This document shows, in pieces, positions 1 through 12,789 of a stretch of 64,000 bases of DNA. The stretch lies in the NCBI GenBank assembly GCA_040220235.1, contig JAVJTO010000026.1; one strand, given 5' to 3'. The translations under genes and the position numbers were made by a program. Position 1 is the stretch's first letter. Every line of letters begins with the position of its first letter. Under the pieces are notes generated by a model. It had not been told where the DNA came from. It was given only the letters and a program-made list of their open reading frames with translations, and searched no databases. This stretch comes from Coleofasciculus sp. B1-GNL1-01 (GTDB lineage Bacteria > Cyanobacteriota > Cyanobacteriia > Cyanobacteriales > Coleofasciculaceae).

Positions 1-183
1 TCATTAGACAATTTTATCATCTTTGCAGCTCTTTTAAAATAGTTAAGTGGCTATTTGAATTTTTTGCTGATGGTCAAATATTCGATTTTCCGAAAATTTT
101 TCAGTATGGAATTTTGCCACAACCTAAATAGGATTGCTATAGTTTATAGATTATAGTTTGACTTACCTCCATCAAGGGCGTAC

Positions 184-427
184 TCGCAAACCCCTTCGTC
201 TTCCTCCATAATGACCGCTCGATAACAGTTTTGGCTTACCCCGTTAGGGGTGCGATCGCAAACCCCTTCGTCTTCCTCCATAATGACCGCTCGATAACAG
301 TTTTGGCTTACCCCGTTAGGGGCGCGATCGCAAACCCCTTCGTCTTCTTTCATAATGACCGCTCGATAACAGTTTTGGCTTACCCCGTTAGGGGCGCGAT
401 CGCAAACCCTTCTCTTACTCCATAATG
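184..427. repeat. 72-bp tandem repeat, about 3.3 copies, with a HIP1 site at each junction
   Basis: Unit TCGCAAACCCCTTCGTCTTCCTCCATAATGACCGCTCGATAACAGTTTTGGCTTACCCCGTTAGGGGYGCGA starts at 184, 256, 328 and (partial) 400. Confidence 0.95.
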
Positions 428-918
428 AGTCTGACTTTTGTCAAGTACAATTTATACCAAATTAGATGAGCTTACCCTGTAGTTACCCGGAACTGCCAAC
501 AGTGAAGCTTGGAAAAGAAAACAGTGAGTAGGTAACCCCGATACGCTGTAAAAATATGGATATGAGTAATAGCAAGAGTGGATTGAGAAATTGGAATATT
601 CACGGACTTGAACGTAGATGATTTGCCAAATAAATAAGGCATAGCATGACGAACTTTTGGTTACCCGCTCGTCAGGACTTAACCTTGTGTTAATAGTTTA
701 GCACTATGACTTATTTTTATGTCAGAAATCATTCTTTTGACTTATCTATCCACTCCGGAAAGTACTACTTTTTATAGATAAGCATATTGAGTAAAAATAC
801 TTAATAATTTGCAACTCCTCACCCCGGCGTGAGGAAACTGTAGGGGCGCATAGGCTTGCACCCATCAAATCGGCAAAATCTAACTTGTAATGTTTGAATA
901 AAAAGCAAAAGCACATTT

Positions 919-1527
919 CTACCTCGTCAAAAGTTTACCCTGATTCGCGGCAGCCGCGATCGCGTTACGGTTTGCTGTAAAAACTTGGATTCCCGGAACA
1001 GTTACATAGTCACCATCATCCGTAATCACGTTCACGATTCCTGCTTGATCTATTGCTTCGAGTATGAGCAGATCGTAACCATCAAGGGGTTGAGTCTGGA
1101 GTCTGACTAGAGATTTGTTAATGCTAACATCATCCACTGTAATATCAATACATGAAGCCATAGATGTAACCAGACTCCAAGCGGTTTGAACTTCAGCTAC
1201 AACATTAGCTCTTTGCGATGGATGGTTGTGGCGATAGTCTTTGGCTTTTATTGTGGCGGAAAAAATTTTTCGTTCTGTTGTCTCAATATTGTGTGCTAAC
1301 TCTGCTAGGGAAAGACCACAGTATCGGAGTGAAGCTTGAACAGAAATAGCTTTCATTAAATAGGACGGATACACATTAGTCTGATAAGATAGTGCTGAGG
1401 TACTAGCTTGGGTATAGGTGAGCCAGTACCAGACATTAGTGTCAACAAGAAAAATGTCATCCTGTTTTGGGATATCAGAGTGAATATCAAAAACCTCAGC
1501 CTGAACTGTGTAGTTGATTACCATCAA
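919..1527 (-). CDS. PIN-domain ribonuclease (putative toxin/effector)
   Basis: PIN acidic motifs FLVDTNVW, AELAH, DGYDLLI, VITDDGDY; start overlaps the stop of the upstream STAS gene. Confidence 0.8.
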   Translation of the reverse strand: MMVINYTVQAEVFDIHSDIPKQDDIFLVDTNVWYWLTYTQASTSALSYQTNVYPSYLMKAISVQASLRYCGLSLAELAHNIETTERKIFSATIKAKDYRHNHPSQRANVVAEVQTAWSLVTSMASCIDITVDDVSINKSLVRLQTQPLDGYDLLILEAIDQAGIVNVITDDGDYVTVPGIQVFTANRNAIAAAANQGKLLTR

Positions 1528-1877
1528 AGACTATTTGCTTGTTCGCTAACGACTTTATCTACTGCTTTGCGAGTATACTCATCTGAGTAATACCGCTTCG
1601 AGTTCTCAATCACCGCTTTGAGTACCTGTTTGCCAACTGGGTTGAGGTTAGACACTTTAAGCAAACGGTTGAGGGTTTCTGGTTTTATGTCTCCTAGCAA
1701 TTGACCAATGGCAAAGTTAAAAAAAGGAGACGCAAAAATATTCACTCCAGCAAAGTCTACCTCGACAGGACGCTCTGCTTTCAGTTCCGGGTGAATGAGT
1801 TTGTAAACCTTTTGACCATCTTCAAGAGTCATGCAGTATTTGCCCACCAGGTCGTAGATATTGTATTTTTTCATCAT
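1524..1877 (-). CDS. STAS-like (DUF4325-type) protein
   Basis: 117 aa; GQKVY...VEVDFAGVNIFASPFFNFAIGQL resembles the STAS/anti-anti-sigma core with a Ser at the phospho-acceptor position. Confidence 0.75.
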   Translation of the reverse strand: MMKKYNIYDLVGKYCMTLEDGQKVYKLIHPELKAERPVEVDFAGVNIFASPFFNFAIGQLLGDIKPETLNRLLKVSNLNPVGKQVLKAVIENSKRYYSDEYTRKAVDKVVSEQANSL

Positions 1878-1889
1878 TCTGACCTCCCT

Positions 1890-2771
1890 TTAGAACAGCG
1901 GCTCCTCACTGGGTTCAGAGTTCAGCGAGTCTAGTGAGTAATAAGACTCATCAGATTTAAGTGTGATATTGACCAGTGTTCCCTCAAAGAAACTTTGACT
2001 ACTCTGATACGTTTCTTGTGTTTTATCAATTATGACATATCCATTATGACTGAAAATCTCTAGTTTTCCCTCATTCACCCTGACAAATTGTTTTAAATAG
2101 TCAAGTCCTATGCCCCTTGCTATACCATGTTTGGTGGTTGTCCCTCGCCTAAATGCCCATTTGATAGTCTCATCTGCTGATAAATCAGTCTGGTTCAAGA
2201 AATCGCGAACGTTGCGAGGAATACCAACCCCAAAATCGACTACGGTAAGTTTCAGTTCTCCCAGAGTGGGGTAGTGCTGTCCGCAACTAAAAACCCCAAT
2301 ATTTGTTTGTCCATGCTCGAAGGCATTTGCATAGATTTCCCAGACGGTTGAAACAATATGGTTTTTCAATAACTGATCGATATGAACCCAGCCACGACCT
2401 AACCATTGTTCAGATAGGTAGTCTACTAAACCGCTGTTGTCTAGATATCGGTCTTCTCTATATGGGATGGAGTTTCCTTCCCAAGGCTCTACACCCTCCC
2501 CAAAGATGTGCATGAAACCATTTTGTTGAAGATTTATCCGGATTGGATTGTAAAGTGTATCCTACTTGAAGCTAACCTTACGCCCCTGGGATTCAATTAA
2601 GCGGGCTAACCCACCTATAAAAGCTACAGCATTTTGTCGTAGAAAGCTGCATCCAGAGAAATCGAAGACTACTTCCAAGTCTGTCTGGTTGACTTGCTGC
2701 CAAAGTTGAAACAGCAGCTCAAAGTCTTTCAACTCATCGTTGATAGTTAGAACTTGAAGAACTAGGCTCAC
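1890..2771 (-). pseudogene. STAS-like N-domain + GHKL (HATPase_c) kinase-like gene interrupted by one in-frame TAG at 2562-2564
   Basis: ORFs 2562..2771 and 1890..2513 share a frame and read KVSFK*DTLYNPIRINLQQNGFMHIF; GHKL boxes EIYANAFEH, DFGVGI, RGIGL. Confidence 0.75.
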
Positions 2772-3507
2772 AATTAATTCTGGAATGTGTGGTCAAGATA
2801 TAGAGTATAGTTTAAACTTAGCCCAATCCCAGCGATGACTGAATTGGCGACGGCGGACACACCGACACCCAACAGGGTTAGCGATCGCACTCGTTGCCGA
2901 TAGTGACGAGTATAGTGCTAGTCTAGCAACCATGCCGTACTGCGACCAATCAGATGAACGGGTTGATCTAGGGAACTCTCTTTTTTTTGCCCATCTCCCT
3001 CAATGGCTGAGAAGCTGAGAAATATTTACGAAATGCAATATTTCTTCATCATTTTGTACTAATACTTAATTAAGTTAAAATATCCCAGCTTGTAAAAACG
3101 AATACAGCTTATTCTTTAGATTATTTTAAGGTAGGGAGTTGCAAAAGTCTTAAATAAATTAAAAAAAAGTTAGACTACCTAAATTGCTAAATTTTTGTTA
3201 GATAATAGAAGAGTATCCGGAAGAAGGCGGGAAGGTTAAAAGACCGTTAACCAATTCCGGAAACGACCGTCAGCCATATAGCTTGGGGGTTTAATGTCGA
3301 TTTATGCTATCTAGAAAAAACAACATTGACGTTGTTCAAAGAAGGACTCAATTGGAACATTTATGCTAATTCGATTACCAATAGAATTGACGTTTTGTAG
3401 TGGAAGAGACGAAATTAATAGGGGATTTGCAATAGATAAGGAATTAAGTTGAAGTTTAGCGCCCCAAACAAAAAAGATTACCTAGCAACCCATAAAGGTT
3501 TGTAACT

Positions 3508-6500
3508 ATGACGAAACGAACGATTGCAACTCTAGACGGAAACGAAGCGGTAGCTCGCGTTGCCTACCCACTCAATGAAGTGATTGCCATTTATCCGATC
3601 ACCCCCGCTTCACCCATGGGAGAATGGGCAGATGCCTGGTCTTCAGAAGGTCGCAAGAACCTCTGGGGTACTGTTCCCTCAATCATTGAAATGCAGAGTG
3701 AAGCTGGCGCGGCAGGTACGGTTCATGGTGCATTGCAGGCAGGGTCATTGACCAGCACATTCACAGCCTCTCAGGGCTTGCTGTTAATGCTACCCAACCT
3801 CTACAAAATCGCTGGGGAAATGACCTCAGCCGTGATCCATGTCGCCGCGCGATCGCTAGCCGCCCAAGCCTTGTCCATTTTTGGGGATCACCAAGATGTG
3901 ATGGCGTGTCGTGCTACCGGCTTTGGTCTGTTGGCGTCGGGATCAGTCCAAGAGGCACATGACCTAGCATTGATTGCCCACGCCGCTAGCCTCGAATCCC
4001 GCGTTCCCTTTATCCATTTCTTTGATGGCTTCCGCACCTCCCACGAAGTTCAGAAAATTGAACTCCTGGCAGAAGAAGATCTGCGGGAAATGATCAATGA
4101 TGAACGGGTAATGGAACACCGGGCGCGGGGTCTCACCCCAGATCGCCCCGTTCTGCGAGGAACCGCCCAAAACCCGGATGTCTATTTCCAAGCGCGGGAA
4201 ACCGTTAACCCCTACTACAACGCCTGTCCGGGAATTGTCCAGAACACCATGGACAAATTTGCCGAACTCACCGGGCGCAAGTATGAACTGTTCCAATATT
4301 ACGGTGCCCCCGATGCCGAACGAGTGATTATCCTCATGGGTTCTGGCACAGAAACCGCCCATGAAACCGTGGATTACCTGAACAAACAGGGTGAAAAAGT
4401 GGGGATGATCAAAGTGCGGCTGTATCGCCCCTTTGACATGAAACAATTGGTTAAGGCATTACCTACGACCACCAAGAGTATCGCGGCTCTAGACCGCACC
4501 AAAGAACCGGGTGCAGGTGGTGAACCCCTGTATTTGGATGTGGTAACAGCCGTTCAGGAAGCCTGGGAAGCCGATACACCTAAACCCAAGGTTGTCGGTG
4601 GACGCTATGGCTTATCCTCTAAGAAATTTAGCCCCGCGATGGTGAAGGGGATTTTCGATAACCTGGCGGCTGATCAACCTAAGAACCACTTTACCATTGG
4701 CATCAACGATGACTTGACCAATACCAGCCTCTCCTTCGATCCCAACTTCTCCACGGAACCCGAAAGCGTGGTGCGTTGTGTGTTCTATGGCTTAGGGTCA
4801 GATGGTACTGTGGGCGCGAATAAGAACTCGATCAAGATTATTGGCGAAGAAACCGATAACTACGCCCAAGGTTACTTCGTTTACGACTCCAAGAAATCCG
4901 GTGCTGTTACCGTTTCTCACCTGCGCTTTGGTCCAGAACCGATTCGTTCAACCTACCAGATTAGCCAAGCCAACTTTGTGGCTTGTCACCAGTGGGTGTT
5001 CCTGGAAAAATTGAACGTCCTTAGTAGTGCTGCCCCTGGTGCAACCTTCCTGCTGAATTGTCCCTTTGGACCCGATGAAGTCTGGGGTCTACTGCCGCGT
5101 CCAGTGCAAGAGGAAATTGTCAATAAGAACTTGAAGTTCTATGTTATTGACGCCAACCAAGTGTCCATTAACAGTGGGATGGGACGACGGATTAACACCG
5201 TGATGCAAGTCTGCTTCTTTGAACTGGCGAATATCTTACCCAAAGAAGAAGCGATCGCGAAAATTAAGCAGTACATCGAAAAGACTTACGGCAAGAAGGG
5301 TGCAGAAGTTGTCCGCATGAATATTGAGGCGGTGGACAATGCTTTGGCGCATCTGTATGAAGTGCAAGTGCCAGATAGCCTGGACAGCACTGTGGATATG
5401 CGTCCCCCGGTTCCCGACACCGCCCCAGCCTTTGTTCGGGATGTGTTAGGTAAGATGATGGCGCGGGGTGGCGATGACCTGCCTGTGAGTGCTTTACCTG
5501 TAGATGGGACATTCCCTACGGGTACAACCAAATGGGAAAAACGCAATGTGGCATTAGAAGTCCCGGTTTGGGACCCCGATGTCTGCGTCCAGTGTGGTAA
5601 GTGTGTCATGGTTTGCCCCCATGCGGTGATCCGAGGCAAGTCTTATGACCCGCAGGTGTTAGAAAATGCCCCAGCTTCTTTTAAGTCTATCGATACTCGT
5701 GATAAAGAGTATGAGGGACAGAAATTTACGATTCAGGTAGCGGTAGAAGACTGTACGGGTTGCGGAATTTGTGTCGATGTTTGTCCGGCGAAGAATAAGT
5801 CTCAGCCGAAGCTGAAGGCGATTAACATGGAATCCCAGTTACCGTTGCGGGATCAAGAACAGGAAAATTGGGACTTCTTCTTAGATATTCCTAATCCCGA
5901 TCGCCGTTCCTTAAATTTAGACCGGATTCGTCAGCAGCAATGGCAAGAACCCCTATTTGAGTTCTCCGGCGCTTGTGCGGGTTGTGGTGAAACGCCTTAT
6001 CTAAAACTGGCGACTCAACTATTTGGCGATCGCATGGTGGTGGCAAATGCCACAGGCTGTTCCTCGATTTACGGTGGGAACCTACCGACTACACCATGGG
6101 CGCAAAACGCGGAAGGACGTGGACCAGCTTGGTCGAATAGCTTATTTGAAGATAACGCCGAATTTGGTATTGGCTTCCGCGTATCCATTGACAAACACAC
6201 CCAATTTGCCGCTGAGTTAGTGCAAACGTTAGCGGGTGAGATTGGCGATAACTTAGTCAGTGGGATTCTCAACGCCGACCAGAAATCCGAAGCCGATATC
6301 TGGGAACAACGGGAACGAGTCGCCCAACTCAAGCAGAAACTGCAAGGGATGAACTCTCCTGAAGCCAAGCAGTTGTTAAGTTTAGCCGATTACCTAGTCA
6401 AGAAGAGTGTCTGGATTATCGGTGGTGACGGCTGGGCGTATGATATTGGTTACGGTGGTTTAGACCATGTGATTGCCAGTGGTCGTAATGTGAATATCTT

Positions 6501-7122
6501 GGTGTTGGATACTGAGGTGTATTCCAACACGGGGGGTCAAGCGTCCAAAGCTACTCCACGGGGGGCGGTGGCGAAATTTGCCGCAGCAGGTAAACCCGCA
6601 CCGAAGAAAGACCTCGGTTTAATTGCGATGACCTACGGGAATGTCTACGTTGCTAGTGTGGCAATGGGGGCGCGGGATGAACATACCCTGAAGGCGTTCT
6701 TAGAAGCGGAGGCGTATAATGGTCCATCCCTAATCCTGGCGTATTCGCACTGTATTGCCCACGGGATTAATATGACCACATCGATGTCTCATCACAAGGC
6801 GTTGGTTGAGTCCGGGCGCTGGTTGCTGTATCGCTTCAATCCCGATTTAGTCAAAGAAGCGAAGAATCCCCTGCAACTGGATATGCGGAGTCCGAAATTC
6901 CCGGTGGAACAATCCATGTATCAAGAAAACCGCTTCAAGATGCTGACCAAGAGTAAGCCAGAAGATGCTAAACGTCTCCTGCAAGAAGCGCAACAGGATG
7001 TGCAAACCCGGTGGCAGATGTACCAATATCTGGCAGCCCGTCAGTTGGACACCCACAACGGTCATGGGAATGGTCAGACAACCCAAACCGGTGAGGAAGT
7101 TAAGGAACCGACGAATACCTAA
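3508..7122 (+). CDS. nifJ: Pyruvate:ferredoxin (flavodoxin) oxidoreductase
   Basis: YPITP, GLGSDGTVGANK, two CxxCxxCxxxCP clusters, GACAGCGETPY, GGDGWAYDIG. Confidence 0.97.
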   Translation: MTKRTIATLDGNEAVARVAYPLNEVIAIYPITPASPMGEWADAWSSEGRKNLWGTVPSIIEMQSEAGAAGTVHGALQAGSLTSTFTASQGLLLMLPNLYKIAGEMTSAVIHVAARSLAAQALSIFGDHQDVMACRATGFGLLASGSVQEAHDLALIAHAASLESRVPFIHFFDGFRTSHEVQKIELLAEEDLREMINDERVMEHRARGLTPDRPVLRGTAQNPDVYFQARETVNPYYNACPGIVQNTMDKFAELTGRKYELFQYYGAPDAERVIILMGSGTETAHETVDYLNKQGEKVGMIKVRLYRPFDMKQLVKALPTTTKSIAALDRTKEPGAGGEPLYLDVVTAVQEAWEADTPKPKVVGGRYGLSSKKFSPAMVKGIFDNLAADQPKNHFTIGINDDLTNTSLSFDPNFSTEPESVVRCVFYGLGSDGTVGANKNSIKIIGEETDNYAQGYFVYDSKKSGAVTVSHLRFGPEPIRSTYQISQANFVACHQWVFLEKLNVLSSAAPGATFLLNCPFGPDEVWGLLPRPVQEEIVNKNLKFYVIDANQVSINSGMGRRINTVMQVCFFELANILPKEEAIAKIKQYIEKTYGKKGAEVVRMNIEAVDNALAHLYEVQVPDSLDSTVDMRPPVPDTAPAFVRDVLGKMMARGGDDLPVSALPVDGTFPTGTTKWEKRNVALEVPVWDPDVCVQCGKCVMVCPHAVIRGKSYDPQVLENAPASFKSIDTRDKEYEGQKFTIQVAVEDCTGCGICVDVCPAKNKSQPKLKAINMESQLPLRDQEQENWDFFLDIPNPDRRSLNLDRIRQQQWQEPLFEFSGACAGCGETPYLKLATQLFGDRMVVANATGCSSIYGGNLPTTPWAQNAEGRGPAWSNSLFEDNAEFGIGFRVSIDKHTQFAAELVQTLAGEIGDNLVSGILNADQKSEADIWEQRERVAQLKQKLQGMNSPEAKQLLSLADYLVKKSVWIIGGDGWAYDIGYGGLDHVIASGRNVNILVLDTEVYSNTGGQASKATPRGAVAKFAAAGKPAPKKDLGLIAMTYGNVYVASVAMGARDEHTLKAFLEAEAYNGPSLILAYSHCIAHGINMTTSMSHHKALVESGRWLLYRFNPDLVKEAKNPLQLDMRSPKFPVEQSMYQENRFKMLTKSKPEDAKRLLQEAQQDVQTRWQMYQYLAARQLDTHNGHGNGQTTQTGEEVKEPTNT

Positions 7123-7128
7123 ATAACA

Positions 7129-7156
7129 GTAGAGACGCGCCATGGCGCGTCTCTAC
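7129..7156. repeat. Perfect 28-bp GTAG-type palindrome (REP-like)
   Basis: GTAGAGACGCGCCATGGCGCGTCTCTAC; related copies at 19735-19760 and 25859-25882. Confidence 0.9.
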
Positions 7157-7201
7157 ACCCCTCCACAGGATTACCCATAAAGAATTGAGAGGTTTAAACG
7201 G

Positions 7202-8218
7202 ATGGATCTGACAACAACATATCTCGGGTTAGAATTGCGATCGCCCCTCGTCGTTGGTGCAGCGGCACCCTTGACCGAAGATGTGGACAATATCAAGCGC
7301 ATGGAGGATGCAGGCGCGGCGGCTGTGGTGCTGCATTCCTTATTTGAAGAACAACTGCGCCAAGAAAAGTTGGAGTTACACCATCACTTAGAGTATGGTA
7401 CTGAAAGTTTTGCCGAAGCCCTGACCTATTTCCCGGAAGCAGAAGTCTTTCATGTGGGTTCGGAGCAATATTTAGAGCATATCCGTAAGGCAAAAGAGAC
7501 GGTGAATATGCCGATCATCGCTAGTCTTAATGGTGCTACGGTGGGCGGCTGGACGCACTACGCCAAGGAAATTGAGCAGGCGGGGGCAAATGCGCTGGAG
7601 TTGAATATCTACAGCATCCCCACGGATATGGATCAGACGGGGGCGGAAATTGAGCAGAATTATCTTGATATTCTGCAAGCGGTGAAATCTGAGGTGAGTA
7701 TTCCGGTGGCGATTAAACTCAGTCCCTTCTTCAGCAATATGGCAAATATGGCGAAGCGGTTGACGGAGGCGGGTGCGGATGGTTTGGTCTTTTTCAATCG
7801 ATTTTACCAGCCGGATATTGATATTGAGGAGTTGGAAGTTTCACCCAATATCTTGCTGAGTACCCCGCAAGCGATGCGCTTACCCATGCGCTGGATTGCG
7901 ATTTTGTATGGTCGTCTGTCGGTGGACTTTGCTGCTACCAGTGGGGTACATAAAGGGCAGGATGTGATCAAAATGATGATGGCAGGTGCGAAAGTGACGG
8001 AAATCGTCAGTGTACTGCTGCGTCATGGGATTGGCAATCTGCAAGACATTGAGCAAGAGGTGCGCCATTGGATGGAGGAACATGAATACGAGTCTATCAA
8101 GCAGATGCAGGGTAGCATGAGTCAGATTAACTGTCCTGATGAAAGTGGCTTTGAACGGGCGCAGTACATGAAAGCGATTCAGACATACAAGCCTCAATTG
8201 GTGGGGTTTGCGCCGTAG
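7202..8218 (+). CDS. Dihydroorotate dehydrogenase-like flavoprotein (nifJ-associated)
   Basis: [46 protein letters not shown]; directly downstream of nifJ. Confidence 0.9.
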
Positions 8219-8236
8219 GGTGAACGCCAATTAATT

Positions 8237-8269
8237 AGATCCCCGATTTCTGGAATAAGTTGGGGATCT
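8237..8269. terminator. Repeated palindrome, likely terminator between convergent genes
   Basis: AGATCCCCGATTT...AAGTTGGGGATCT; related AGATCCCCGACTTCTCCAAGAAGTCGGGGATCT at 46114-46146. Confidence 0.55.
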
Positions 8270-8350
8270 GATCGGGACAAATCATCCAGGAAACCGTAGG
8301 GGCGCATAGACGTGCGCCCGACTCAATTGCCAGATCTGATTTAAACTGGA

Positions 8351-8776
8351 TTATTTACCGTCAGTTATCCGATCAAGTGTTAGTTTTTCGGTGTGGTTCA
8401 AGGATTCTTCTGATTTTTTAGCTTTTTCGGCTTTTTTAGCCATCGAGTCTAATTTACGGCTTGCCTTTTTCCGTCCATGTTCAATCGCCTGCTTTCTTTT
8501 CTCGGTTTTGCCAATCAATTCCTTGGTTGTCTCTAAGCCCTCAAATGCCTTTTCTGATGCCTTTTTCGCTTGTTCACTCCCTTTGTCTAAATCGACAGAT
8601 TTCTCAGATTGAGGATGGGCTGGGGTTAATTGTGCTGTAGGCGTTAGAGGGGTGGCTAAGGCGTCGCTATTATTGTCTGCGATCGCTAAACCAAAAATCA
8701 GGCAAATTGGAATTAAAAACAAGGCTAGGATTTGACGCAGTTTGCTGAGGTGTAATTTCATTTTTAATAGCGGCAT
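8351..8776 (-). CDS. Hypothetical exported/membrane-anchored helical protein
   Basis: Hydrophobic N-terminal segment followed by a Lys/Glu/Ala-rich region. Confidence 0.7.
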   Translation of the reverse strand: MPLLKMKLHLSKLRQILALFLIPICLIFGLAIADNNSDALATPLTPTAQLTPAHPQSEKSVDLDKGSEQAKKASEKAFEGLETTKELIGKTEKRKQAIEHGRKKASRKLDSMAKKAEKAKKSEESLNHTEKLTLDRITDGK

Positions 8777-8867
8777 AGATAGTCTTTAATAGTCTTTAAA
8801 GGCAACAGGGAGCTAGGAAATGGGCGATACCCGATACTTGCACCTTTGTCAATAAGCCCCGACACTC

Positions 8868-8982
8868 GCCAAGAACTCAAGTTCTTGGCTAAAAGCGCAA
8901 GTCGTCTCAAGACGACTAAAACTCTTATTCAGTCAGCTAAGGCTGACTTGGGATTTTAGTCTTGGGTTTCAACCCTAAGCGG
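8868..8982. repeat. Four-hairpin palindromic element
   Basis: Stems GCCAAGAAC/GTTCTTGGC, AGTCGTC/GACGACT, AGTCAGC/GCTGACT, CTTGGGTT/AACCCTAAG. Confidence 0.75.
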
Positions 8983-9066
8983 TTGGTGAGACTCTGGGCA
9001 TACTTTCCCATAGTGGCAATAAACCCCTACAATTTCCTTCATACTAAAGACAGAAAAACGGCAGTT

Positions 9067-10773
9067 TTGACACCTCAGCCCTTATCTCGTCCCCCAATTC
9101 TCAACCCACAAACAGCTTGGGGATTAGTATTTATCGGCGCGATCGCACTTTCTCTTTACCAGGCGGGTATCTGGGGAGAGGATATCTTGAATCCAGGTGG
9201 ATTTTCCTTATTGGGGCGATTCCTCCAAGCCAGTCTACAACCGGAGTTAAGCCTTGAGTTTCTCCAATTAACCTTAGAGGCGACGCTTACCACGTTAGCT
9301 TATGCCGTCTGTGGTACGTTTCTCAGTGTGGTGCTGGGAATTGTGGGCGGAATTTTCACCTCAGAGGTGTGGTGGTTGGCGGTTTCTCCGGGTTCAATCG
9401 AGAGACACCCTTCTCAAATTTGGTTGAGTTTGCGGGGATTGTTGGCGGTTCCCAGGGCGATTCACGAAATGCTGTGGGGACTGTTTTTTGTGAATATTTG
9501 GGGACTTGATCCCTTAGTCGCCATTTTAGCGATCGCGATTCCCTTTGGGGCGGTGGTGGCGAAGGTTTTTGCCGAAATTCTGGATGAGACGCCTCGTCAA
9601 CCGCTAATTACGCTGCTTAATAGTGGGGTTGCACCGTTAACCGCGTTTCTGTATACGCTGATTCCCCAAGCCTTTTTAAATCTTCTCTCCTATACATTTT
9701 ATCGCTTTGAATGTTCGATTCGTTCGGCGGCGGTGTTGGGAATTATCGGGGCTGGGGGATTAGGATATGAGATTTTCCTAAGTTTGCAGTCACTGCGTTA
9801 TCAGCAATTGTGGACATTTTTCTATGCCCTATTTATCTTAAATGGGATGGTTGATTTGAGTAGCGCTTGGTTACGCGATCGCTTAGGCTGTACCAGTCGC
9901 CTGGATTTAAATGCTGATCAAGGTTCTACGTCTCCAAGGAAATCCTATCAGCGTGATCCGTGGATTACTCTGGCGGGTATCGCAGTGGCGCTACTCATCC
10001 CCTTTTGCTTTTGGTATGTCCATCCTGACTTTACTCAACTTTGGTCACCCCGTACTGGGAAATTATTGGCGGATGCGATAACCGTATCCTTTCCACCGGA
10101 TATCAGCTGGGAACAATTGCCAGAATTAGTCCGATTATCAACCCAAACCCTCTCCATGTCCATTCTCGCGATCGCTTTAGCGAGTATAGGTGGTATTTTA
10201 CTCTCGTTTCCGGCAACTCGTAATTTTTTCCTACCTGGAGGATTACTCAATCCGAGTCGTCAAGGAAGAGGGCGAGGCGAGAAAATTTGGGTATGGATTA
10301 CCTTTTTACTCACCCGGGCGATTTTATTGGTGTGTCGGGCAATTCCTGCACCAATTTGGGCGTTAGTGGCGCTGTTTATCTTATTTCCGGGTATTTTACC
10401 GGGTGCGATCGCGTTGGGGATGCACAATTTGGGGATTTTAGGGCGGTTGATGGCAGAAGTGACAGAAAATATCCCCCAACCTCCATTACAAGCCTTGAAA
10501 GCTCAGGGAACCCCCGCTGCGTTGGTGTTTTTATATGGGGTGCTACCGATGACATTGCCCCGTTTTCTGGCGTATAGTCTGTACCGTTGGGAAGTCTGTA
10601 TGCGAGAAACGGTAATTGTGGGATTAGTGGGGGCGGGTGGATTAGGGCGGTTATTGAGTGAACAATTGAGTAGTTTTGACGCGCCCGGTATTGTTACCAC
10701 TATCGCCTGTTTAATTATGCTGACGGTTCTCGTGGATTGGATAAGTGGAATCAGTCGGCGTGCATGGCGTTGA
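9067..10773 (+). CDS. phnE: PhnE/PtxC-family ABC permease with two tandem permease domains
   Basis: Duplicated motifs (YRFECSIRSAAVLGIIGAGGLG; YRWEVCMRETVIVGLVGAGGLG); start moved to TTG 9067 because the upstream part of the ORF lies in a palindromic repeat. Confidence 0.8.
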   Translation: MTPQPLSRPPILNPQTAWGLVFIGAIALSLYQAGIWGEDILNPGGFSLLGRFLQASLQPELSLEFLQLTLEATLTTLAYAVCGTFLSVVLGIVGGIFTSEVWWLAVSPGSIERHPSQIWLSLRGLLAVPRAIHEMLWGLFFVNIWGLDPLVAILAIAIPFGAVVAKVFAEILDETPRQPLITLLNSGVAPLTAFLYTLIPQAFLNLLSYTFYRFECSIRSAAVLGIIGAGGLGYEIFLSLQSLRYQQLWTFFYALFILNGMVDLSSAWLRDRLGCTSRLDLNADQGSTSPRKSYQRDPWITLAGIAVALLIPFCFWYVHPDFTQLWSPRTGKLLADAITVSFPPDISWEQLPELVRLSTQTLSMSILAIALASIGGILLSFPATRNFFLPGGLLNPSRQGRGRGEKIWVWITFLLTRAILLVCRAIPAPIWALVALFILFPGILPGAIALGMHNLGILGRLMAEVTENIPQPPLQALKAQGTPAALVFLYGVLPMTLPRFLAYSLYRWEVCMRETVIVGLVGAGGLGRLLSEQLSSFDAPGIVTTIACLIMLTVLVDWISGISRRAWR

Positions 10774-11042
10774 ATCCAATAGGCAGGAGGCACGGCAACG
10801 CTGTATCCCTACGGAACCTGTCCTCGAACCCGCTACTGACTTCAGCTTATCTGTCTATTTTATAACAGTACCAAAGCAGGGAGAGGATATTCTTTACTGT
10901 TCTGTTGCCTGTTCCCTGTTGCCTAATCTCAACCGTTAATTTTAATTGTGTCCACCTACTTAGTGCTGTACTTGTTGACTATCGTGGTTTTTTGTATATA
11001 CAATGTACACACATACCTAAAACTCTAAAGTAGAGAGTAACT

Positions 11043-11333
11043 ATGGCGTTTCTTGATAAAACCAATAAAGACAAGCGCTCCCTTGTCGTCAATATGAGAG
11101 TTGAACCCAATCAGCTTGATCTCATAGATACAGCGGCATCTGTTTGTGGCAAGACTCGGAGTGCTTTTATGTTAGACGCAGCCTATCGAGCAGCAGAAGA
11201 GGCATTGCTAGATTGGAGATTGTTCCGCCTTAATGATGATCAGTGGAAGGCTTTTAATCAAGCTCTTGATATGCCCCCAGAGAAAAATGAAAAGTTACAT
11301 CAATTGCTTCAGGTAAAATCTCCTTGGGAATAA
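11043..11333 (+). CDS. DUF1778/TacA-family RHH antitoxin
   Basis: NMRV...LIDTAA...GKTRSAFMLDAA...LNDDQWKAFNQALDMPP; precedes a GNAT gene. Confidence 0.9.
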   Translation: MAFLDKTNKDKRSLVVNMRVEPNQLDLIDTAASVCGKTRSAFMLDAAYRAAEEALLDWRLFRLNDDQWKAFNQALDMPPEKNEKLHQLLQVKSPWE

Positions 11334-11357
11334 TTATTATTCTGTGGTAATTACCTC

Positions 11358-11855
11358 ATGAAGTATACCCCACCGGAACATATTCAACCAACCCATGATA
11401 TAGAGTCATTTGATTGTGGCGAGATAAGCTTAAATCAATGGTTAAAAACACGCGCTCTTAACAATGAAACCCTTGGTTCATCACGCACTTATGTAGTCTG
11501 TTGGGAAAACAAAGTAGTAGGATACTACTGTTTAGCTAATGGTCAGGTTTCTCATATTGAAGCTCCCGGTAAAATCAAAAGAAATATGCCCGATCCAATC
11601 CCAGTCGTAGTAATGGGTAGACTGGCTGTTGATATTCATCATCAAGGAAAGGGAATTGGTATGGGAATGATCAAAGATGCTGTAAAGCGTACTCTACAAG
11701 CATCGGAGATACTAGGGATTAGAGCGATTCTAATTCATGCCCTTAACGAAAATGTGAAAGATTTTTACGTGGAACGTTGCGGCTTTATGCCTTCTCCAAT
11801 TCATCCTTTAACGGTCATGGTAAAACTTTCTGACATAAAAAAGAATCTTATTTGA
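11358..11855 (+). CDS. GNAT acetyltransferase toxin (TacT/AtaT family)
   Basis: FDCGEISLNQWL, PVVVMGRLAVD, QGKGIG acetyl-CoA motif. Confidence 0.9.
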   Translation: MKYTPPEHIQPTHDIESFDCGEISLNQWLKTRALNNETLGSSRTYVVCWENKVVGYYCLANGQVSHIEAPGKIKRNMPDPIPVVVMGRLAVDIHHQGKGIGMGMIKDAVKRTLQASEILGIRAILIHALNENVKDFYVERCGFMPSPIHPLTVMVKLSDIKKNLI

Positions 11856-11943
11856 ATGAATAAAGACGCGCTGGGGAAACATCTGTACCTCACCTACGTT
11901 AGAAACTAGATAAATAACCTCCTTCCTGCCTTGAAGCCTGCTG

Positions 11944-12789
11944 TTATATTAACGCGATCGCACGATTGGTATAGTCGGGGAGTTCAGGCGTTTTTCCATC
12001 CTGATCCGGAACCGCTTCGACAAACACATCCTTATAGTTCATCTGAACATCACCAAAAATAGTGGCAAACGCGACATCAGCCGCATCGCGCCCAATACCA
12101 ATGCGAATTAACCCATTACAGGGGGCGAGTCGGCTGGCGTCAAACAAATACCAGCGATCGCCTAAATACGCCTCAAAATAGGCATGAAAATCTTGCGGTT
12201 CTAAATTATAAGCATATCCCGTCACAAATCGAGCTGGAATATTCAACGCCCGACAAAAAGCAATTCCCAAATGGGCAAAATCTCGACAAACCCCTGCTCG
12301 TTCTGTCGCGGTATCATAAGCCGAGGTATGTTGATTCGTGCTACCCGATAAATAGGTGACATTATCGTAAATCCAGTTACAGATTGCCGTAACTCTGGAA
12401 TAGTCAGGAATCAAATTACCAAACTCATTCTGTGCCAGACGCATCAGCCGATCTGACTCACAGTAACGCGATGGGTAGAGGTAATGTAACGTTTCTAACG
12501 GTAACTTATGCGGAGGATTTTCTGGAATCGAACTGGGGTCTTCATCCCGATAATATAAATCCACAGTTGCTTGATAGGACACCTGTAAGTCACCTTGGGG
12601 TAAATGGACTCGTAGATATCGGTTTTCCATCCGAGGAGAAACATACTCCTCATAATCCAGGGATGGTTCAATTCGCAAGCTTTCTTGCAGAATTTTTTGA
12701 TGTTTTTTCTCAACAACGCTGAGATTAAAAATAAAAGTGCTACTTGCCGCAACACTATAGTTTAATTGACAGCCTAGCTTGAATTTCAT
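11944..12789 (-). CDS. Transglutaminase-like family protein
   Basis: GVCRDFAH, DFHAYFEAY, WYLFD catalytic triad motifs. Confidence 0.92.
   Translation of the reverse strand: MKFKLGCQLNYSVAASSTFIFNLSVVEKKHQKILQESLRIEPSLDYEEYVSPRMENRYLRVHLPQGDLQVSYQATVDLYYRDEDPSSIPENPPHKLPLETLHYLYPSRYCESDRLMRLAQNEFGNLIPDYSRVTAICNWIYDNVTYLSGSTNQHTSAYDTATERAGVCRDFAHLGIAFCRALNIPARFVTGYAYNLEPQDFHAYFEAYLGDRWYLFDASRLAPCNGLIRIGIGRDAADVAFATIFGDVQMNYKDVFVEAVPDQDGKTPELPDYTNRAIALI

Follow-up and report, generated by a model that had tools for sequence, protein, structure and literature searches.

The closest described relative of the locus considered here is VapKSC, a three-gene operon (vapKSC) reported by Chambers, Rani, Min, Villa and Corbett (EMBO J, 2026; PMC13373217; PDB 9Z7O), with 289 instances, 36% of which have another PADLOC hit no more than 10 kb away. 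At the structural level, the crystal structure of Escherichia VapS-VapC is a 2:2 assembly in which VapS residue S48 is buried in the interface, and a C-terminal helix of VapS (residues 94–116) inhibits VapC. Escherichia VapC is toxic and its D28A mutant is not. VapS rescues cells from the toxin; the S48E substitution abolishes both binding and neutralisation, and a C-terminal deletion also fails to rescue. At the level of the infected cell, the Escherichia operon protects against phage Bas42 by about 2 logs, and this effect is lost in the VapC D28A, VapS S48A and VapK F54A mutants (PMC13373217). VapK is insoluble, and its kinase activity on VapS and its activation by single-stranded DNA are deduced in the paper from the related kinase CapK, from a model and from the F54A phenotype. 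In the intact system, as shown for the Escherichia proteins, VapS binds the VapC dimer and blocks it with the C-terminal helix. On the proposed model, VapK would be activated by single-stranded DNA arising in phage infection or DNA repair and would phosphorylate the buried serine, VapS would let go, and the freed VapC would cut RNA, arrest the cell and limit the phage.

Dataset EV3 of the paper lists many cyanobacteria, including the organisms of two loci (L005 and L006) found with the PIN protein described below; its main text makes no mention of cyanobacteria, pseudogenes or loci lacking vapK (PMC13373217). Since the published search started from VapK and kept complete triads, relatives without the kinase or without the phospho-acceptor serine fall outside the published set. 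Among the literature matches listed, the name vapKSC occurs only in this paper and its preprint. The coupling of a PIN domain to DUF4325 was tabulated earlier as cluster PIN.4, with no function attached (Matelska et al., 2017; PMC5499597).

The operon beside nifJ

In the window, i.e. the whole stretch of 64,000 nucleotides that was analysed, three coupled minus-strand genes occupy positions 919–2771 and are divergent from nifJ. The features are as follows.

1890–2771, minus strand: vapK, STAS-like N-domain and GHKL kinase domain, 293 codons, with an in-frame TAG at codon 70
2562–2564, minus strand: premature TAG stop in vapK (codon 70), where the third STAS strand ends; it splits F43 from the kinase domain
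1524–1877, minus strand: vapS, predicted DUF4325 STAS antitoxin, 116–117 aa, with Ser50 at the phospho-acceptor site and the C-terminal inhibitory helix present
919–1527, minus strand: vapC, predicted PIN RNase toxin, 201–202 aa, with D29, N31, E76, D149, D152, D170, D171 and D173 intact
2772–3507, no strand: intergenic region common to vapK and the divergent nifJ; a variable site where the operon is present, a remnant or missing in congeners

The gap of 12 bp between genes 1 and 2 and the overlap of 4 bp between genes 2 and 3, the latter with a TTG start, agree with the first-pass annotation; an in-frame ATG at 1524, which fits the homologue starts better, would reduce the overlap to 1 bp. 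That annotation had proposed a kinase-gated STAS-PIN toxin-antitoxin or anti-phage module and knew of no characterised system of this architecture. The mechanism it proposed was essentially right and fits the Escherichia orthologues, but the system was already published and named (PMC13373217). The window adds one cyanobacterial member, in which the gate is probably not working because of the TAG in vapK.

Gene 2 encodes 117 aa and matches Pfam DUF4325 (PF14213; E 3e-19) as well as the chain 9z7o_A, 'Escherichia VapS' (E 6.8e-22, residues 5–115). Its S50 aligns to the FASPFFN serine at chain position 66 of 9z7o_A, which would correspond to residue 48 on the assumption that 18 of the 134 chain residues are a tag. 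The alignment reaches residue 131 of 134, and thus the C-terminal helix is present. The early description of a stand-alone STAS-like protein with a phospho-acceptor serine is upheld. A GGAGG sequence 5 nt upstream of the start gives vapS a strong ribosome-binding site of its own.

Gene 3 has no Pfam match. Its model, built from a 138-row alignment (pLDDT 97.8), adopts the PIN fold of VapC toxins, which are its closest structural matches (best Z 12.7, rmsd 2.5, 127 aligned residues), and the family profile matches 9z7o_C, 'Escherichia VapC', over the whole length (E 6.1e-71). D29 aligns to D28, the tested catalytic residue of Escherichia VapC. D29, E76, D152, D171 and D173 are found in 118 of 118 aligned PINs and all eight listed residues in 115–118 of the 118, in keeping with the intact acidic motifs noted at first reading. 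Searches of PLSDB plasmids and INPHARED phages with the PIN protein gave no match. In a genome of the same genus (G003, locus L012) and in the sequencing run X5 there is a 15-nt in-frame duplication near the vapC start, at window position 1464.

Gene 1 had been described as having a STAS-like N-domain, GHKL boxes and no recognisable HisKA domain, with a hint of an interruption only in the words 'repaired kinase'. HATPase_c is found above the Pfam cut-off (E 5e-6) and HisKA is absent; the STAS part has a weak STAS_2 match at residues 20–69 that falls below the cut-off (E 0.012). The gene is not an open frame. Read through the stop with X, it has 293 residues, and the TAG splits it into ORFs of 69 aa and 207 aa. 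F43, E145, N149, H153, G181, G220 and G222 are each kept in 47–50 of 50 intact relatives; the catalytic Asn, N149, is invariant (50/50) and position 43 is F or Y in 49/50. F43 and N149 are 106 residues apart, the same spacing as F54 and N160 of Escherichia VapK (PMC13373217), and F43 is tentatively equated with F54 on this spacing to the catalytic Asn. The predicted model of the intact VapK allele of G003 (pLDDT 89.6) begins with a beta-alpha STAS-like domain. Foldseek lists only GHKL proteins for this model and no STAS chain, a profile comparison of the kinase with VapS was not significant, and for the kinase the clusters retrieved from ESM Atlas were all either unnamed or HATPase.

With PADLOC 2.0 and NCBIfam 20, there is no model for VapS or VapC, and gene 1 retrieves only DrmA (E 8e-9) and weak kinases. 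The PADLOC check suggested at the outset yields no family for genes 2 and 3, and such loci are missed by standard annotation. The kinase matches positions 13–274 of the 1750-column PADLOC DrmA model, which hints at VapK-like domains fused to DISARM helicases. In the search for longer fused forms none was found for the kinase and none with a STAS alignment; both are weak negatives.

From the sequence, the triad is almost certainly VapKSC. The genes and their order are the same, the kinase is of the STAS-GHKL type with the catalytic Asn (N160 in Escherichia) and has no N-terminal HTH, the STAS antitoxin has a Ser at the S48 position and the C-terminal helix, and VapC has the D28 equivalent. The one difference, that vapK is not one intact frame, bears on function and not on orthology. 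CapK/CapS (PMC13373217; PDB 9Z71–9Z73) also pairs a STAS-GHKL kinase with a STAS substrate and uses ssDNA-activated serine phosphorylation as the switch; however, CapK has an N-terminal HTH, and CapS has 184 aa with a C-terminal winged HTH and represses transcription. The window, with a 293-codon kinase, a 117-aa STAS protein free of HTH or wHTH and a PIN toxin as putative output, does not belong to that family. SpoIIAB/SpoIIAA and RsbW/RsbV likewise rely on a GHKL serine kinase whose target is a serine in a STAS domain (PMC13373217), but the window operon has neither sigma factor nor phosphatase (no sigma factor gene is found among the ORFs of window positions 1–12000), and in VapKSC the output is sequestered by the STAS protein and not by the kinase. 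Classical VapBC differs in having a DNA-binding VapB in place of a STAS antitoxin and a PIN protein of ∼130 aa as against ∼200. Gene 2 matches only the DUF4325 STAS family and no RHH, AbrB, HTH or Phd, which sets the locus apart from VapBC. Compared by description, PIN.4 is similar in that a VapC-like PIN is coupled to a DUF4325 gene (PMC5499597).

The GC content of the triad is 42.1%, which is AT-rich relative to nifJ (51.1%), as had been remarked, but is unremarkable relative to the genome (45.5%): of 3000 segments drawn at random, 12% have a GC content at least this low. Horizontal acquisition on the basis of GC content alone was rejected. A promoter scan gave two promoter-like sites where 6.3 are expected, with no sigma-70-like promoter upstream of vapK, and a terminator scan gave none. 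The immediate surroundings are not a defence island: nifJ lies upstream and the contig end downstream. A second toxin-antitoxin pair, a TacA1-like antitoxin with a GNAT acetyltransferase, is found at window positions 11043–11855, and a tandem array (period 72, 3.4 copies, 95% matches) lies near the contig end at 184–428.

Kinase loss among relatives

The neighbourhood survey proposed with the initial reading found a conserved gene order. In the first 10 genome loci retrieved with the PIN protein alone, vapS is directly upstream in all 10 and the kinase is present in seven, and hence the triad is not a chance association. At E ≤0.001 there are 610 PIN clusters at 50% identity. The PIN profile is found in 32 of the 401 genomes searched from the phylum to which the window belongs, in 10 of 401 of the phylum of G699 (Desulfobacterota-level), 3 of 400 of the class of G702 (Gammaproteobacteria-level) and on four viral contigs; the non-cyanobacterial sample is small, given the few loci from the Desulfobacterota- and Gammaproteobacteria-level searches. 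Complete vapKSC operons are present on viral contigs at L101, L102 and L104, the first two beside phage integrase or terminase genes and hence prophage-borne copies.

A possible defence context is seen among the relatives. By Pfam, 20 of the 42 kinase-bearing loci that are left after dereplication have hsdS or hsdM among the first two ORFs upstream (a raw count), and this gene is often 3–15 nt from vapK; NCBIfam adds two HsdS-like upstream neighbours. These restriction-modification-linked loci may be largely one lineage, many of them from one ancestor. In L004, L007, L029, L049, L050, L053, L061, L073, L076, L082, L083, L086, L099, L100 and others, vapK is a few bases behind the hsdS of a type I restriction-modification operon. 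The hsdS-linked layout is stressed in the published work for capKS and not for vapKSC (PMC13373217). In L115, L117, L120, L121, L123 and L124, from related cyanobacteria, the operon adjoins uvrB, probably at one inherited insertion site; CapK activation needed UvrAB (PMC13373217).

At the same chromosomal site in congeners, the locus sits between nifJ and yggT-accC. G003 has the whole operon intact with ∼94% DNA identity to the window, G006 has scraps of vapK and vapS, and G001 has scraps of vapK. Nothing is found at the site in G002, and none upstream of nifJ in G007 and G008. The sequencing run X1 has a deep contig with deletions and shallow contigs with intact genes. Such variation between congeners is what a dispensable defence module shows, being present in some genomes and absent from others.

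The cyanobacterial set consists of 54 distinct genome loci, part of them found with the STAS rather than the PIN query; four are not determinable, and L131–L134 are counted in neither group. Where vapS and vapC are both intact, vapK is intact in 21 loci, broken in nine (the window included) and absent in 13. Thus 22 of these 43 cyanobacterial loci lack an intact vapK, versus 1 of 17 elsewhere (Fisher p = 0.001, a value that is overstated because kin are not independent). The 19 other genome and viral loci (one not determinable) comprise 16 that are complete, one with a broken kinase and one with a broken vapC. Of 70 metagenome loci, 40 are scored as complete, four as broken, three as absent and 23 as not determinable. 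In cyanobacteria, vapC is broken or absent in seven loci; only one of these has an intact vapK and the other six are kinase-less or kinase-broken. A decay route in which the kinase goes first, the toxin later and the antitoxin last is often seen in cyanobacteria, and the operon in the window probably represents its first step. An exception to the last-lost antitoxin is L048 (5157–6612), which joins vapK to vapC with vapS missing and is possibly a misassembly or a local rearrangement. In L070, parts of vapS and the start of vapC are repeated in tandem, again a misassembly or local rearrangement. Such an order of decay would be consistent with a toxin wired to a signal of DNA damage being costly for organisms that live in high light. 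Frequent vapK loss in cyanobacteria, together with the relatives that lack both serine and kinase, goes beyond the published account (PMC13373217).

A rival reading is that cyanobacterial VapS-VapC is kept as a kinase-independent type II toxin-antitoxin pair, released by antitoxin turnover, by another GHKL serine kinase or by a protease, in which case the window locus would be functional in another way. This reading, which is compatible with a real stop codon, is rather unlikely, but of the alternatives it fares best. The 13 cyanobacterial loci devoid of any vapK trace keep vapS and vapC with all acidic residues; vapK was not found elsewhere in nine of 10 kinase-less genomes searched whole, the tenth (G433) having one vapK beside its own decayed vapS/vapC. 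The lineages L165, L166 and L170 hold the pair at one site across species, and vapS has a strong ribosome-binding site to itself. However, toxin-antitoxin pairs persist passively, as the antitoxin cannot be lost first, and the six kinase-defective loci mentioned above have already damaged or lost vapC. In addition, congeners have deleted the whole locus, and VapS lacks the kind of DNA-binding domain through which VapBC pairs typically regulate themselves.

At the phospho-acceptor site, 121 of 127 PIN loci were scored for VapS, leaving out the window's duplicate and five with no usable STAS hit. Of the 83 loci that have a kinase, 82 carry Ser or Thr (the kinase being intact in 76 and split in 6) and the remaining one, a decayed locus, has Tyr. 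Ser or Thr is also present in 3 of 3 loci with kinase remnants and in 8 of 13 with no kinase; 22 of the 121 are not scorable.

The stop codon in vapK

The reading preferred here is that of a vapKSC operon that has probably lost its trigger, leaving the module disarmed in this strain. The nonsense change at codon 70 would cut VapK between the putative sensing aromatic residue and the kinase domain; what remains is most likely a VapS-VapC pair locked in the bound state, with no kinase-triggered defence. A search of the source genome (G000) found neither a second vapK nor another DUF4325 gene; its two weak vapK hits are long histidine kinases. The stop codon and the lack of another vapK in the genome together suggest that the module is disarmed. 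Judged by the sequences compared, the stop is private to this assembly, recent and most likely real.

It is improbable that the TAG arose as an error of sequencing or assembly and that the strain has a fully working VapKSC. Codon 70 is Trp in G003 and in 36 of 50 relatives. All three sequencing runs that cover the site (X1, X2 and X5; a fourth has no coverage there) read a Trp codon and none has the TAG; X1 differs from the window at only 6 of 850 nt. Four independent, near-identical sequences (G003 and the three runs) are thus in favour of an error, as is the lack of decay in vapS and vapC. On the other hand, of 38 G003 proteins from 60 kb, 35 match the source genome at ≥85% (12,639 aa), and the TAG in vapK is the only internal stop among them, which argues that the assembly is not error-rich. 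The change is a base substitution and not a homopolymer indel, and the frequency of kinase loss in cyanobacterial loci raises the prior for a true lesion.

It is highly improbable that the split kinase still works, as a residual or deregulated VapK, by amber read-through or by a 69-aa N-fragment together with a 207-aa product restarted at M88: the restart (ORF 1890–2513) would retain the whole GHKL domain with all its boxes (N149, DxGxG, GxG), and the absence of a Shine-Dalgarno sequence at M88 says little since vapK's own start also lacks one, but on the G003 model the TAG interrupts the STAS domain past its third strand, F43 is separated and residues 70–87, which include a helix, are in neither piece, the F54A change alone abolishes defence in Escherichia (PMC13373217), and a constitutive kinase would release the toxin and be selected against.

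Serine-less VapS relatives

Outside the window, a group of kinase-less relatives has an N-terminally extended VapS in which Pro or Ala replaces the serine (5 of 5 loci). The five loci fall in three clades (FastTree, 80 rows) and a sixth, L202, in a fourth. Long VapS proteins of 222–270 aa have Pro at the serine site in 13 of 13 cases (13 long proteins among 15 search matches).

In L148 (6326–9919; G013) and L202 (3724–8645; G746), which belong to separate clades, the order is a TPR-CHAT gene, a fusion of a helical domain to VapS (Ser to Pro) and an intact vapC. The cassette lies a few bases behind the TPR-CHAT gene, whose HFxGHG and SACET (His-Cys) motifs are intact. The helical domain has 130 residues and also stands alone in many cyanobacteria; ESM Atlas gave nothing usable for it. 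The fusion is rare, with 1 in 401 genomes of the order and 1 in 79 in the genus of G698. No vapK is found at the L148 or L202 locus, nor anywhere in the G013 genome. In L008 (4521–6627), L010 and L107, an N-terminally extended VapS (CIPPF) is followed by vapC, which is frameshifted in L010. A TIGR04255 gene precedes the extended VapS at these three loci (checked for L008 and L010), and the three genomes show no vapK. A third kind of extended VapS, of 204 aa with Ser to Ala, is found in L149 (5991–7911; G181) behind an unannotated 227-aa gene.

Perhaps cyanobacteria have swapped the input to VapS-VapC, which would then be a portable effector cassette. On this tentative reading, the ssDNA-responsive kinase would have been shed repeatedly, and at least four lineages would have lost the VapS serine and gained an N-domain. 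The two fusions behind a TPR-CHAT protease suggest that antitoxin cleavage, and not phosphorylation, might free the RNase; a third lineage lies behind a TIGR04255 gene. There is a precedent in a cyanobacterial caspase homologue that is reported to cleave an antitoxin (PMC7935541), and among the literature matches listed no description of TIGR04255- or TPR-CHAT-linked STAS/PIN variants was found. If true, the kinase-less, serine-less relatives would extend the published theme of modularity to a new input, a caspase-like protease (PMC13373217). Just as likely as protease gating is a chance fusion that came about when vapK was deleted and then drifted. A complex prediction for the serine-less VapS and VapC of L008 gave weak support, with a score of 0.36 versus 0.00 for the best control, contacts at least 95% alike and a partner pLDDT of 72; no weight is placed on it, as 5 of 78 solved complexes score this high, all four passing mismatches do so too, and a like complex has already been solved. 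The serine-less, possibly protease-gated variants are the part worth following.

Two other gene neighbourhoods are of note. At L209 (3177–5706; G523), a kinase-less vapS-vapC pair starts 17 nt behind a 521-aa gene that resembles kaiC. At L149, a KAP-family NTPase gene is located downstream of vapC.
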